IMG/VR virus record: IMGVR_UViG_2639762987_000008
DNA length: 4,144 nucleotides
Reading direction: 5' to 3' (one strand)
Origin: a virus
Taxonomy: Duplodnaviria > Heunggongvirae > Uroviricota > Caudoviricetes
The translations under genes and the position numbers were made by a program. The notes beneath the pieces are model-generated. The model did not search any database, had not been told where the DNA came from, and worked only from the letters and a program-made list of their open reading frames with translations. Below, piece after piece: positions 1 to 4,144 of this stretch (position 1 is the first letter of the stretch; every line of letters starts with the position of its first letter).

Positions 1-32
1 TTTTGAACGTTTCAGGCTATTTTTCTCGCGTT

Positions 33-69
33 AGGTTCCCGCACAGGTTCCCACGTTTTATGGGAACCC
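33..69. repeat. Short repeat cluster upstream of the integrase start: AGGTTCCC at 33-40 and 45-52 (direct), and GGGAACC at 62-68 forming a 7-bp inverted repeat with GGTTCCC at 46-52 (9-nt spacer). Possible integrase arm-type/att-proximal sites or an operator for int.
   Basis: Read directly from the sequence: ttAGGTTCCCgcacAGGTTCCCacgttttatGGGAACCcg. Function is inferred from position immediately 5' of the int start; no core att site can be defined from this window alone. Confidence 0.35.
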
Positions 70-88
70 GAAATAACGAGGTCGTGTA

Positions 89-1186
89 ATGGCGTACTAT
101 AACATAGAGAAACGACTAAAATCCGATGGCACACCACGCTATCGCTGTAATGTGATTATCAAAGAAAAAGGGGTTATCACTTACAGGGAAAGCAAAACAT
201 TCCCTAAACATGCTCATGCCAAAACATGGGGCACACAGAAAGTGATGGAATTAGATCTACATGGCATTCCATCATCAAATGCTGTTGACGGGCTTACAGT
301 CCGTGACTTACTACGCAAATATTTAAATGACCCAAATGCCGGAGGTAAAGCAGGCCGTACTAAAAGATATGTGCTGGAACTACTTATGGATAGTGACATT
401 TCTGCGATCAGACTATCTGAATTAACAGAAAATGACGTAATAGAACATTGCAGGTTGAGAAACAACGCCGGTGCAGGTCCAGCTACTGTTAGCCACGATG
501 TTAGTTATCTTGGCAGTGTTCTGGATGCAGCCAAACCTGTATACGGAATTAATTACACATCAAACCCAGCAAAAGCCGCTCGTCCATATCTACTTAAACT
601 TGGTTTAATTGGTAAATCAAATCGTCGTAATCGTAGACCAGCATCTGATGAACTAGACATGCTCATTGAAGGCCTTCAACAACGATCTACTCATAAATGC
701 TCAAAAATTCCGTTCGTTGATATCCTCAAATTTTCTGTGTGGTCCTGTATGCGAATCGGAGAAGTATGCCGGTTACGATGGGAAGATCTCGACCAGGAAC
801 AAAAATCTATACTAGTAAGAGACAGGAAAGATCCACGTAAAAAGGAAGGTAACCATATGAAAGTGGCCTTGCTTGGGGAAGCCTGGGATATCGTCCAACG
901 ACAACCCAAAAAATCTGAATTCATTTTTCCATACAACAGCACTTCTGTTACCGCAGGATTTCAGAGGGTAAGAAGCAAATTAGGTATTAAAGATCTGCGA
1001 TACCATGATTTGCGTAGAGAAGGGGCAAGTCGCTTATTTGAGGCTGGTTTTAGTATTGAGGAAGTCGCCCAGGTTACAGGGCATCGTTCATTAAACGTGC
1101 TATGGCAGGTATATACCGAACTGTATCCAAAATCTTTACATAATCGTTTTGAAGAACTCCAAAGGAGCAGAAATAAGACCTCTTGA
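89..1186 (+). CDS. int: Tyrosine site-specific recombinase (phage integrase family), 365 aa
   Basis: Full ORF with GAGG Shine-Dalgarno 7 nt upstream of the ATG. Box I-like segment (MRIGEVCRLRWEDLD), box II HDLR at 1004-1015, GHRS, and the putative catalytic Tyr in WQVYTE at 1112-1114. The N-terminus (YNIEKR...GTPRYR) is consistent with an arm-type DNA-binding domain. Antisense ORFs within it look spurious. Confidence 0.93.
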   Translation: MAYYNIEKRLKSDGTPRYRCNVIIKEKGVITYRESKTFPKHAHAKTWGTQKVMELDLHGIPSSNAVDGLTVRDLLRKYLNDPNAGGKAGRTKRYVLELLMDSDISAIRLSELTENDVIEHCRLRNNAGAGPATVSHDVSYLGSVLDAAKPVYGINYTSNPAKAARPYLLKLGLIGKSNRRNRRPASDELDMLIEGLQQRSTHKCSKIPFVDILKFSVWSCMRIGEVCRLRWEDLDQEQKSILVRDRKDPRKKEGNHMKVALLGEAWDIVQRQPKKSEFIFPYNSTSVTAGFQRVRSKLGIKDLRYHDLRREGASRLFEAGFSIEEVAQVTGHRSLNVLWQVYTELYPKSLHNRFEELQRSRNKTS

Positions 1187-1206
1187 CACTGTTTATTCAT
1201 ACAGTT
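1187..1206 (+). promoter_or_regulatory. LexA box 1 (SOS box), CACTGTTTATTCATACAGTT
   Basis: CTGT (1189-1192) - 8 nt - ACAG (1201-1204); about 15 of 20 positions match the E. coli-type consensus TACTGTATATATATACAGTA. Confidence 0.6.
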
Positions 1207-1214
1207 AAAAATAA

Positions 1215-1234
1215 TACTGTATACAAACACAGTA
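1215..1234 (+). promoter_or_regulatory. LexA box 2 (SOS box), TACTGTATACAAACACAGTA
   Basis: CTGT (1217-1220) - 8 nt - ACAG (1229-1232) with flanking TA/TA; about 17 of 20 positions match consensus. Lies 14 nt upstream of the ATG of a DinI-family gene, the expected context for a damage-inducible gene. Confidence 0.75.
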
Positions 1235-1247
1235 TAGAGGGATTTTT

Positions 1248-1496
1248 ATGCGTATTGAGATCTGCATAGCCAAAGAGAAAATGACTAAAATGCCAAACGG
1301 TGCTGTGGATGCGTTAAAGGAAGAATTAACTCGACGCATCAGTAAGCGTTATGACGATGTAGAGGTGATCGTAAAAGCCACCAGCAACGATGGCCTTTCT
1401 GTTACGCGCACCGCCGATAAAGATTCAGCTAAAACTTTTGTTCAGGAAACTCTGAAAGATACCTGGGAGTCTGCTGACGAGTGGTTTGTTCATTAA
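1248..1496 (+). CDS. dinI: DinI-family DNA-damage-inducible protein (RecA modulator), 82 aa
   Basis: Protein MRIEICIAK...GAVDAL.EEL.RRI...LSV...[17 protein letters not shown] aligns by eye along its whole length with E. coli DinI (MRIEVTIAK...GAIDALAGELSRRI...LSV...QETWESADDWFV). Preceded by an RBS and two LexA boxes. Confidence 0.9.
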
Positions 1497-1562
1497 TTAA
1501 TACGTAAAATCGATAACGGCTGGAAATCATTCAATACTCGCACTATCGGAAGTTCACCAGCC

Positions 1563-1603
1563 AGCCGCAGTATTCTGCCATGACAAGTTGCTGCGGCTTT
1601 TTA
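1563..1603 (+). terminator. Putative rho-independent terminator for the int-dinI transcription unit: stem AGCCGCAG (1563-1570) / CTGCGGCT (1591-1598) followed by TTTTTAT
   Basis: 8-bp GC-rich inverted repeat followed by a T-run on the + strand. The loop is long (20 nt), so stability is uncertain. It sits between the convergent dinI-like gene and the 3' end of the - strand operon (stop at 1607-1609). No comparable T-run follows the hairpin on the - strand. Confidence 0.45.
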
Positions 1604-1606
1604 TGT

Positions 1607-2618: not shown

Positions 2619-2900
2619 TCACATCCAGCCACGAAGTTGATGCTCAACAACAATCGCGTATTTATCGAATATTGACGATTTTTTTGCATCATTAATGATG
2701 CGCACGTTTACAAAATATCCGTCTTCCTTAACACATACCGGTTCGCCATCTTCAGTCAGTTCTCCGCTTTCTTTGTACACGTTACCTATCACGTCAATAA
2801 GAATATCATCCTGCATCGACTCGTCATCATAATAGCCAATACTCTCCATAAAGGCCGAAAAGTCGGCCCTGTCTGCAAATTTGAGTGTTAAATCTTTCAT
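2619..2900 (-). CDS. Small acidic hypothetical protein, 93 aa, translationally coupled to the upstream fibre-like gene
   Basis: Its ATG (2900-2898) overlaps the TGA (2899-2897) of the upstream gene as ATGA; a GGGGAGAG RBS-like sequence lies upstream. Strongly Asp/Glu-rich. Followed 9 nt later by the next gene. No recognisable motif. Confidence 0.6.
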   Translation of the reverse strand: MKDLTLKFADRADFSAFMESIGYYDDESMQDDILIDVIGNVYKESGELTEDGEPVCVKEDGYFVNVRIINDAKKSSIFDKYAIVVEHQLRGWM

Positions 2901-4144
2901 TTAATACTCTCCCCCATTTGCGCATCAGTTAATTCTTTATGCCAGATACGCAGATTACGGATATGACCAAAAAGATGATACTCCCCATTAGTGCCCTGCC
3001 CTCCAATTCGCAATACTGCCCGTGGAACAATTGAAGTCCATGTTGTTTTTGCCGCAACAGATAATTCACCATTACATACGGCCTGAACATCTCCATCAGC
3101 GCCACAACGTAAGCCTGAAATGATTTTCCTCTGGGTTGTTGCCACATATTTATTACACCCTCCCATAGAAATAAAAGGAGAACCGGCATCAGAGAAATTA
3201 TTACCACGGAATCCATGCGTGAACAGACCATTTTCCTGATAATCTTTAACATTAAAGATTAATGGTGATTTGCTGGGAGGGATATCCCAGTTTTTATTAA
3301 CTTCAACAAGAGCACTGAATGGTAATCGGTGAATATTGTTTCTTACAGGTATTGTCACCATGTCGCTGGAGCGAGTGCCAGGAGCCCCTTCAGTAATGAT
3401 AAATGACGTCCTGTACGACCCAATCTCCGCCTGAGGCATCGCAATATCTAACGTAGAGCCATTGGGGATAATACTGATTCCAGGCATCGCCAGGATTTCA
3501 AATCTTGAGCTGATTATCATTTCCNNNNNNNNNNNNNNNNNNNNNNNNNNNNNNNNNNNNNNNNCTGCATCTGAATGAAAAACAAACGCACCATTATCAG
3601 ACATTTTTCCGAACCTTGCACGACACCGGGAATTATCACTTTTCGTCAGACACGATATCGTCGTATAAGAACCTGCCGGGCAGGTGTAAGCATCATTCGT
3701 GTTTACAGCAATTGCCTGATATCCTTGTGCTGTCGGATTTTCATTAATAACAGTTATCCTTCCATAGTTAAACCCATTATCACTGTCGAACGACTCAACA
3801 GACACACTACCCGTGTTATTCCATGCTTCTGGTGTATTTGAATTTCTGAAATAGTTTGTTCTCTGTCCTTCAATCAGCAAACCTTCTCGTTCAAATCGCG
3901 GTTCGTCAACTTCAGCAACGGTTAATACACCTGATTTATTAATGTATGTTGCACCTGATGCGCGTTTGAAGCTAACAACCTTATCGGATGGCATTTTAAT
4001 AACATCATCACCTACAGTTATTTGCTTATAACCAGGCGAAAAGCCAGCAAGCATATCCAGTGAATCGTTAAACGGTATCCACACATCAGGCAGTGGCTGT
4101 AAGACATATTTATACGGCTCTGCTGCCTGGCTTGCATACTCTCT
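2897..4144 (-). CDS. Phage tail-fibre / receptor-binding-like protein with C-terminal LamG-type (concanavalin-A-like lectin) domain; 5'-partial, as the reading frame stays open to the window edge at 4144
   Basis: The reading frame is open from 4144 (upstream of the GTG at 4084 there is no stop: ...REYASQAAEPYKYVLQPLPDV-WIPFNDSL...) to the TGA at 2897-2899. The C-terminal signature ...LRIGGQGTNGEYHLFGHIRNLRIWHKELTDAQM (nt about 2915-2977) resembles the LamG_3 family ending (F.G.IDEVRIWNRALS..EI). Frame is maintained across the N run at 3525-3564. Confidence 0.72.
   Translation of the reverse strand, partial: REYASQAAEPYKYVLQPLPDVWIPFNDSLDMLAGFSPGYKQITVGDDVIKMPSDKVVSFKRASGATYINKSGVLTVAEVDEPRFEREGLLIEGQRTNYFRNSNTPEAWNNTGSVSVESFDSDNGFNYGRITVINENPTAQGYQAIAVNTNDAYTCPAGSYTTISCLTKSDNSRCRARFGKMSDNGAFVFHSDAXXXXXXXXXXXXXXEMIISSRFEILAMPGISIIPNGSTLDIAMPQAEIGSYRTSFIITEGAPGTRSSDMVTIPVRNNIHRLPFSALVEVNKNWDIPPSKSPLIFNVKDYQENGLFTHGFRGNNFSDAGSPFISMGGCNKYVATTQRKIISGLRCGADGDVQAVCNGELSVAAKTTWTSIVPRAVLRIGGQGTNGEYHLFGHIRNLRIWHKELTDAQMGESIK
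3525..3564. other. Run of 40 ambiguous bases (N): masked or unresolved sequence inside the fibre-like CDS
   Basis: Seen directly. The flanking reading frame is conserved, so the run probably replaces 40 real bases rather than marking a gap of unknown size. Confidence 0.95.

Follow-up and report, generated by a model that had tools for sequence, protein, structure and literature searches.

A dinI-like gene behind two LexA boxes as a predicted mobile SOS cassette at the integrase end of an mEp460-like prophage

The closest experimentally studied relatives of the gene described here are the dinI homologues of the Gifsy prophages of Salmonella, which are damage-inducible and have a terminator-like hairpin upstream. 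Gifsy-1, -2, and -3 each carry a DinI homologue that is expressed from its own LexA-box promoter (PdinI-gfoA/PdinI-gftA), independently of the phage repressor, and LexA control of these genes has been established by promoter replacement, in lexA(Ind-) and by transcriptomics (PMC3121763, PMC8072944). When the Gifsy dinI homologues were removed by non-polar deletion, induction did not change significantly (PMC3121763). In Klebsiella pneumoniae, dinI has been linked to LexA by ChIP, and DinR, an sRNA derived from the dinI 3'UTR, represses ftsZ (PMC10907235). Cryo-EM of the contacts between RecA and DinI identified a DinI pocket for RecA F203 (L13, L21, W71, W77, and F78) and an acidic patch (E24, E69, and D76), and the RecA groove bound by DinI is also the groove of LexA, UmuD, and lambda CI (PMC9926225). 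On the function or "moron" status of the phage-type DinI proteins, our literature searches found passing mentions only: they appear in lists of cargo genes, in association with the evolution of quinolone resistance, and, for CFT073 c0943, as co-regulated with SOS genes.

Here we analyzed a stretch of 4,144 nt (IMG/VR record IMGVR_UViG_2639762987_000008), referred to as the window, in which a dinI-like gene follows a phage integrase gene (int). Like its Gifsy counterparts, this gene is preceded by LexA-box sequences of its own. However, the Gifsy genes have one LexA box that overlaps the -10 element, with the 20-mer at -39 (L092), whereas the window has two, at -61 and -33. Gifsy dinI heads an operon in the nin region that also contains the antirepressor and irsA genes, whereas the gene in the window is predicted to be monocistronic, with a terminator about 100 nt past its stop codon, and lies at the int/tail-fibre end of its prophage. 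An operon of the Gifsy dinI-antirepressor type was considered for the window and rejected, because dinI and the terminator leave no room between them for an antirepressor ORF. The prophage studied here has an S24-type repressor, whereas those of Gifsy are not cleaved, and the two kinds of DinI protein share only 42.5% identity. We found no description of a two-operator, stand-alone dinI architecture in the searchable literature.

We consider it very likely that positions 1183-1604 constitute a self-contained, horizontally mobile SOS moron, in which a LexA-repressed sigma-70 promoter drives a monocistronic dinI-like mRNA encoding a modulator of the RecA filament. For the window, LexA occupancy, damage inducibility, and the transcription start site are predicted by strong analogy. 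The features on which this reading is based are listed in Table 1.

Table 1. Positions of the features assigned in the 4,144-nt window.
Feature	Position	Strand	Basis and remarks
Tyrosine integrase gene (int) of the dusA-integrating prophage	89..1186	+	ORF; Phage_integrase PF00589 at 9.6e-21
-35 hexamer TTGACA (6/6); left boundary of the mobile dinI cassette	1183..1188	+	Sequence, mEp460 annotation, conservation, homology edge
LexA box 1, CACTGTTTATTCATACAGTT (core 1189-1204)	1187..1206	.	21.9 bits; takes up 16 bp of the 17-bp spacer between -35 and -10
-10 region TAAAAAT	1206..1212	+	TAAAAA with a 17-bp spacer or AAAAAT with an 18-bp spacer; 4/6 in either register
LexA box 2, TACTGTATACAAACACAGTA (core 1217-1232)	1215..1234	.	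22.8 bits; over the predicted start and the beginning of the 5' UTR
Shine-Dalgarno sequence GAGGG	1237..1241	+	6 nt 5' of the ATG; sequence reading; purine-rich block kept in homologues
DinI-family gene, 82 aa, predicted RecA-filament binder	1248..1496	+	PF06183 at 1.2e-19; ATG 1248, stop 1494-1496
Conserved 3' UTR with hairpin 1518-1523/1557-1562	1497..1562	+	Fold; junction element common to lambdoid phages without dinI
Intrinsic terminator, 10-bp stem 1563-1572/1589-1598, 16-nt loop, TTTTTAT	1563..1604	+	Fold

Sequence identity places the window at the int end of an E. coli lambdoid prophage that resembles mEp460 and is integrated in dusA. Over its first 2 kb, the window matches numerous complete E. 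coli chromosomes with 100% identity. In one identical complete genome, FDAARGOS_497, dusA directly abuts window position 1 and contains a lambdoid prophage of about 39 kb, with the gene order dusA, int, dinI-like gene, and then, all convergent to these, the genes for a 95-aa ORF, an S74 tail-fibre protein, a 93-aa ORF, the tail fibre, lom, and J. Among named phages, mEp460 is closest (95% identity), and its GenBank record already has a promoter marked at the position corresponding to 1183-1211 but no LexA boxes. The repressor of the prophage is an S24 (CI/LexA-type) protein, which makes a modulator of RecA* relevant to that repressor.

A preliminary description of this DNA had placed two CTGT-N8-ACAG operators between int and the dinI-like gene, and both exact cores are present at the positions it gave. 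This motif occurs exactly twice in the window, where 0.06 occurrences are expected, and none of 200 shuffles contained two or more. Box 2 has at most three mismatches from the 20-mer palindromic consensus TACTGTATATATATACAGTA; zero such matches are expected in the window. Scoring with a provisional LexA weight matrix, which was built from 21 E. coli LexA operators, bore out both sites (21.9 and 22.8 bits), with the next best site in the window at 8.0 bits and a maximum of 16.7 over 300 shuffles. In leave-one-out scoring against the same operator set, both boxes ranked with the recA, recN, and uvrB operators, and heterology-index-style values were 4.5-5.6 and 2.4-8.2, depending on orientation. 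Both boxes thus fall among strong operators. They are centred 28 bp apart, and both overlap the core promoter, where box 1 occupies the spacer and box 2 the predicted +1.

Read in the int frame, the strand runs from AAT AAG ACC TCT TGA through both boxes to TAG AGG GAT TTT TAT G, and the int stop codon (TGA, 1184-1186) lies inside a perfect TTGACA hexamer, just as had been described. The arrangement TTGACA-18-AAAAAT matches 10 of the 12 positions of a sigma-70 promoter, with TTGACA-17-TAAAAA as the alternative register, and both spacers lie within 16-18 bp. From this geometry, transcription is predicted to start at about 1218-1221. The -10 match of only 4/6 counts against a LexA-repressed promoter. 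The hexamer alone is not significant, because TTGACA is seen once in the window, where 3.2 occurrences are expected; the weight of this evidence lies in its position and conservation.

The overlap between the int stop codon and the -35 hexamer had also been taken to imply, should int transcripts read through, a coupling between int expression and the LexA-regulated promoter, and this proposal found no support: the cassette starts at the -35 and follows unrelated DNA in other phages. This edge indicates that the placement of the stop codon within the hexamer marks a recombination or module junction. The int frame enters the cassette edge by two codons and then stops; only its last two codons and the stop codon derive from the cassette. 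We therefore regard it as very unlikely that the element acts on int, whether with bound LexA as a roadblock to int transcripts or as the determinant of their 3' ends, or through a promoter/stop overlap that couples int and dinI. This view could draw on the stop codon within the -35, on the missing terminator between the two genes and on the stability of the int-cassette junction, which is found in 736 E. coli genomes. However, the block from -35 to operators also lies behind unrelated sequences elsewhere (2H10, phi330, Stx phages, and BP-4795), so int played no part in its selection, and its edge supplies no more of int than the two codons and stop. The palindromes were also considered as RNA hairpins terminating int transcripts and rejected; their stems are only 4-5 bp long, no T-run follows, and a simple scan of 1000-2000 found no terminator-like site. 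In that scan, the stretch between int and dinI (1187-1247) was likewise free of terminator-like sites. Read-through from int into dinI is thus structurally possible and could give LexA-independent basal dinI expression.

The edges and distribution of the homology are those of a mobile cassette, which comprises the -35, box 1 in the spacer, the A-rich -10, box 2 over the predicted start, the Shine-Dalgarno sequence, the 82-aa DinI ORF, and the terminator. Compared with other phages and genomes, homology begins at 1178-1183 and ends at about 1567-1570; in many Stx1, Stx2, and other lambdoid phages the match is confined to the interval from 1180/1183 to 1567/1570. We compared seven phage copies (mEp460, 2H10, phi330, Stx2_EH1846, PhiR12_4, BP-4795, and one decayed copy). 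In all intact copies TTGACA, once as TTGATA, is flush with box 1, and relative to the ATG the boxes lie at -61/-62 and -33. The DNA 5' of the cassette is unrelated among the copies: 2H10 has a divergent integrase gene there, phi330 a hypothetical gene, and the Stx phages and BP-4795 prophage ends. The decayed copy (L008) adjoins IS629 and has lost the promoter and altered the N-terminus. Among 5426 complete E. coli genomes, 1789 contain the cassette (1183-1500) in up to seven copies, and most of the matches run from the -35 onward; those to the cassette without the int junction begin at 1178-1183. Copies of this int lacking the cassette were sought for the original int 3' end, and at the nucleotide level nearly all copies carry it. 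With its own promoter and terminator and with sharp presence/absence edges among related phages, the cassette has the properties of a moron.

The promoter layout is conserved far beyond E. coli. Using one genome per species, we collected 80 DinI-family loci from many Enterobacterales, 74 of which show at least one strong LexA box in the 160 bp preceding the gene. A single box with the 20-mer starting about 38-39 bp before the ATG, which is the layout of the chromosomal and Gifsy genes, is present at 61 of these 74 loci, and two boxes at about -61 and -33/-34 are present at the other 13. The two-box loci, found in Escherichia, Shigella, Mixta, Erwinia, and Pantoea, encode the proteins closest to that of the window, and several lie in prophage settings, adjoining either smpB with tail-fibre genes or a P22-type antirepressor gene. 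Two enterobacterial-type cassettes labeled "Chryseobacterium" (L016) and "Saccharibacteria" MAG (L017) were treated as probable contamination or misbinning and used for no taxonomic inference.

We aligned 10 diverged two-box promoters, those of Shigella, Mixta, and Erwinia included. Without exception they share TTGA.A in the -35, CTG and CA(G) in box 1, AAA in the -10, CTG...CAGT in box 2, and the ATG, whereas box interiors and flanks vary. One Mixta promoter (L024) has TAAAAT at the -10 position. Centre to centre, the boxes of the homologues are 26 to 29 bp apart, and what is conserved is the position of each box relative to the promoter elements and not the helical phasing between the boxes. 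The operator scores, this cross-genus footprint, the LexA boxes at 74 of the 80 loci, and the Gifsy and Klebsiella precedents together back the earlier proposal that the dinI-like gene has a separately SOS-controlled promoter. They leave it extremely unlikely that the palindromes arose by chance or are decayed relics in front of a gene that is silent or expressed by read-through only. The imperfect -10 and the clear decay of copies such as L008 would fit such an origin, but chance is excluded by the site counts, the consensus match, and the matrix scores, conservation across genera falls on exactly the functional positions, and the ORF is intact and has kept its RecA-contact residues.

The product of this ORF covers positions 1-63 of the 63-position DinI profile PF06183 with 70.8 bits (cutoff 24.2) and matches the E. 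coli DinI structures 1GHH/7YWA at 7.9e-13, with 47% identity to K-12 DinI. In the alignment to K-12 DinI, the pocket residues L13, L21, W71, W77, and F78 correspond to M15, L23, W73, W79, and F80, and the acidic-patch residues E24, E69, and D76 to E26, D71, and E78. Five of the eight RecA-contact positions are therefore identical and three are conservative replacements. Binding of the protein to the RecA filament is a prediction well supported by this residue-level agreement. Because the contact residues are conserved, a role in modulating RecA and prophage induction is plausible, though this function of the protein is speculative; the Gifsy dinI deletions, which left induction rates unchanged, count against it (PMC3121763).

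Downstream of the gene, the segment 1490-1615 folds at -31.4 kcal/mol (z -2.6), and none of 200 shuffles was as stable. A compensatory change in the HK633 copy is in line with the predicted terminator stem, which was missed by the simple scan because its loop exceeds 8 nt. No ORF of at least 30 aa is found on the + strand between 1497 and the terminator, and a search against Rfam (E<=1) found no known RNA family in the window. The 3' region is part of a junction element of about 100 bp that also matches lambda 24190-24261 (between ea31 and ea47), HK97, and HK633, all of which are without dinI; in HK97 the match lies immediately 3' of the annotated sib retroregulation site. As a side observation, the terminator that counts among the moron properties of the cassette hence belongs to an element shared with phages lacking dinI.

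The proposed SOS regulation would work as follows. In an undamaged lysogen, one dimer of the host LexA protein would sit on box 1 in the spacer and another on box 2 at the start, occluding the promoter and keeping the dinI-like gene off independently of the phage's CI-type repressor. Upon DNA damage, RecA* would stimulate LexA self-cleavage, both operators would become empty, and a monocistronic mRNA ending at the hairpin and T-run of the terminator would be made. The 82-aa DinI-like protein would then enter the groove of the RecA filament that LexA, UmuD, and the CI-type repressors also use, and would alter the stability and co-protease activity of the filament. We infer that induction would be tighter or later, with both strong operators needing to be free. 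Cooperative, phased binding of two LexA dimers was considered and found no support; the 26-29 bp range of box spacing among homologues argues against it, so a "sharper switch" can be inferred at most. That the groove is common to LexA, UmuD, and lambda CI, and that the prophage repressor is of the S24 type, makes a brake or timer on repressor cleavage plausible. The view that phage DinI dampens or times the RecA*-dependent cleavage of UmuD and prophage repressors is one that we hold weakly.

Host LexA may not be the only protein to recognize the boxes. Both mEp460 and the identical complete prophage encode a 108-aa protein that consists of a LexA DNA-binding domain without the cleavable S24 domain (PF01726 at 2.9e-19; 43% identical to LexA residues 1-86), with the recognition-helix motif RSVNAAVEHL in place of RSPNAAEEHL in LexA. 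Of the 61 phage records that contain it, many also have the cassette (mEp460, cdtI, 2H10, PhiR phages, and Stx2c phages), and in GIL01 a truncated phage LexA homologue has a regulatory role (PMC6182141). The boxes might thus also, or mainly, be targets of this LexA mimic, which would re-occupy SOS boxes including PdinI after the destruction of LexA. We judge this improbable. The boxes fit the consensus of host LexA, and a lone DNA-binding domain without a dimerisation domain is expected to bind weakly. In addition, the cassette with both boxes conserved is present in Mixta and Erwinia and in phages not listed among the carriers of the 108-aa protein (BP-4795, phi330, PhiR12_4, and Stx1a/Stx2a phages). 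The 108-aa protein is supposed to be made from the early-right operon after induction.

Host LexA remains our preferred regulator of the cassette. A further reading, which seems doubtful to us, combines it with the mimic: the two-operator cassette would serve as a dosage-scalable governor of late-SOS induction, with DinI made only after deep LexA depletion and competing with S24-type repressors for the RecA groove. It would thereby set the threshold for its own and for co-resident lambdoid prophages (up to seven copies per genome), and the non-cleavable protein with the LexA DNA-binding domain would then re-close the operators.

The cassette adds putatively LexA-controlled copies of a predicted RecA-filament modulator to a third of the sequenced E. 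coli genomes, up to seven of them in EHEC-type strains. If the protein alters the co-protease activity of RecA*, this would have a bearing on Stx-phage induction, SOS mutagenesis, and quinolone responses. What our analysis mainly yields is an accurate map of a prophage promoter that is very common, with its -35, two operators, -10, and terminator, and not a new mechanism.

Compared with known systems, the gene resembles K-12 dinI (b1061) in its protein family, in its predicted LexA control, and in the C-terminal WESAD(D/E)WF helix of its product, and in some cassettes box 2 variants of the form ACCTGTA(C/T)ATAAC(C/T)ACAGTT resemble the K-12 dinI box ACCTGTATAAATAACCAGTA. The K-12 promoter has a single box over a -10 TATAAA, a -35 TTGTCA, and 19 nt between box and ATG, whereas the cassette combines a consensus -35 with two boxes, one within the spacer and the other over the predicted start. 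The 82-aa phage-type protein also differs from K-12 DinI by a two-residue insertion after K9 and by the absence of the EG insertion. The Klebsiella dinI mRNA, which is LexA-controlled, has a box over the start and carries a long structured 3' UTR, can be likened to the cassette transcript, but the DinR seed lies in a Klebsiella-specific stretch of the 3'UTR and the window is without an Rfam match.

SOS promoters with several operators include those of lexA, recN, ydjM, and the colicin genes, and two strong LexA boxes in a core promoter are generally associated with tight repression and late induction. The cassette is similar to these promoters in that two strong boxes overlap the core promoter. 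In Salmonella the boxes are centred about 21 bp apart at lexA and 18-22 bp apart at recN (PMC8072944, table), as compared with 28 bp in the window and 26-29 bp in its homologues, where helical phasing is not conserved.

The morons of lambdoid phages, a concept of Hendrix and Juhala, are units of promoter, gene, and terminator located between conserved genes. Like them, the cassette brings its own promoter and terminator, has sharp edges, is present in some related phages and absent from others, and is expected to be expressed from the repressed prophage, and it is a clean example of a moron whose own -35 hexamer forms its edge. Unlike those of morons, its terminator is not private but part of the junction element of lambda, HK97, and HK633. 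LexA-controlled phage dinI genes are a common and already recognized kind of cargo, of which the two-operator, stand-alone layout is a modest variant.

Downstream of the dinI-like coding sequence, the 3' untranslated region and the terminator together make up a conserved element that is kept in lambdoid phages without dinI, namely lambda, HK97, HK633 and phi80. The lambda copy lies at 24190-24261, flanked by ea31 and ea47, the HK97 copy directly downstream of the annotated sib retroregulation site, and the HK633 copy, which carries a compensatory change in the hairpin, close to attP. An Rfam search of the window gave no match, the element included. The element resembles a leftward terminator and a sequence conserved at module junctions; a putative role as an sRNA is suggested only by the Klebsiella DinR analogy. 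A protein-level call on the opposite strand falls on this conserved non-coding junction sequence and is probably spurious.

Features of the window and of related loci (L008, phage copy of the dinI cassette; L011, sequence around the identical complete prophage of E. coli FDAARGOS_497)
Feature	Location	Strand	Remark
Structured non-coding element, ~100 bp (dinI-like gene 3' UTR and terminator)	window 1504-1600	+	conservation, fold
Protein-level call over junction sequence	window 1493-1573	-	
Decayed dinI cassette copy, Stx2a phage Stx2_499	L008 1477-1719		adjoins IS629
Tail-fibre ORF	window 2897-4084	-	cut by window end
LexA-DNA-binding-domain protein, 108 aa	L011 17584-17910 = NZ_CP033850.1 1887583-1887909	+	PF01726 match

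The cassette itself is not intact everywhere. The copy in Stx2_499 lacks the promoter and both LexA boxes, and the N-terminus of its DinI-like protein is replaced (MPHRYPAAKINKMP...), showing that part of the many genomic cassette copies is non-functional. Two loci labeled Chryseobacterium sp. (L016) and Saccharibacteria MAG (L017) also contain dinI cassettes of the enterobacterial type, with typical LexA boxes; contamination or misbinning of the contigs is the most likely reason, and not a true occurrence in these phyla.

Position 1 of the window is the exact dusA boundary (attL; window 1-88, 4963-6088 in L002, a second sequence around the complete prophage). The opposite prophage end carries a displaced dusA 5' fragment (L011 8781-8885), and host lexA is located just ~4 kb past this far end. 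In contrast to lambda, int is transcribed in the direction of the tail-fibre module, leaving the attachment site behind it. The tail-fibre ORF contains a continuous stretch of 40 masked N (window 3525-3564), and the complete gene comprises 2349 nt in L002.

Beyond the window, the same prophage encodes a LexA-DNA-binding-domain protein (mEp460_046 in mEp460) in the nin region, with dam on one side and rusA on the other. The protein matches PF01726 (2.9e-19), shares 43% identity with residues 1-86 of host LexA and retains the recognition-helix motif RSxNAAxEHL. It consists of the LexA DNA-binding domain only, without an S24 cleavage or dimerisation domain. Records of 61 phages contain the protein, and the dinI cassette is likewise present in many of them. 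The protein might act as a non-cleavable LexA mimic on SOS boxes. The sole characterised analogue that we found in the literature is gp6 of GIL01 (PMC6182141).
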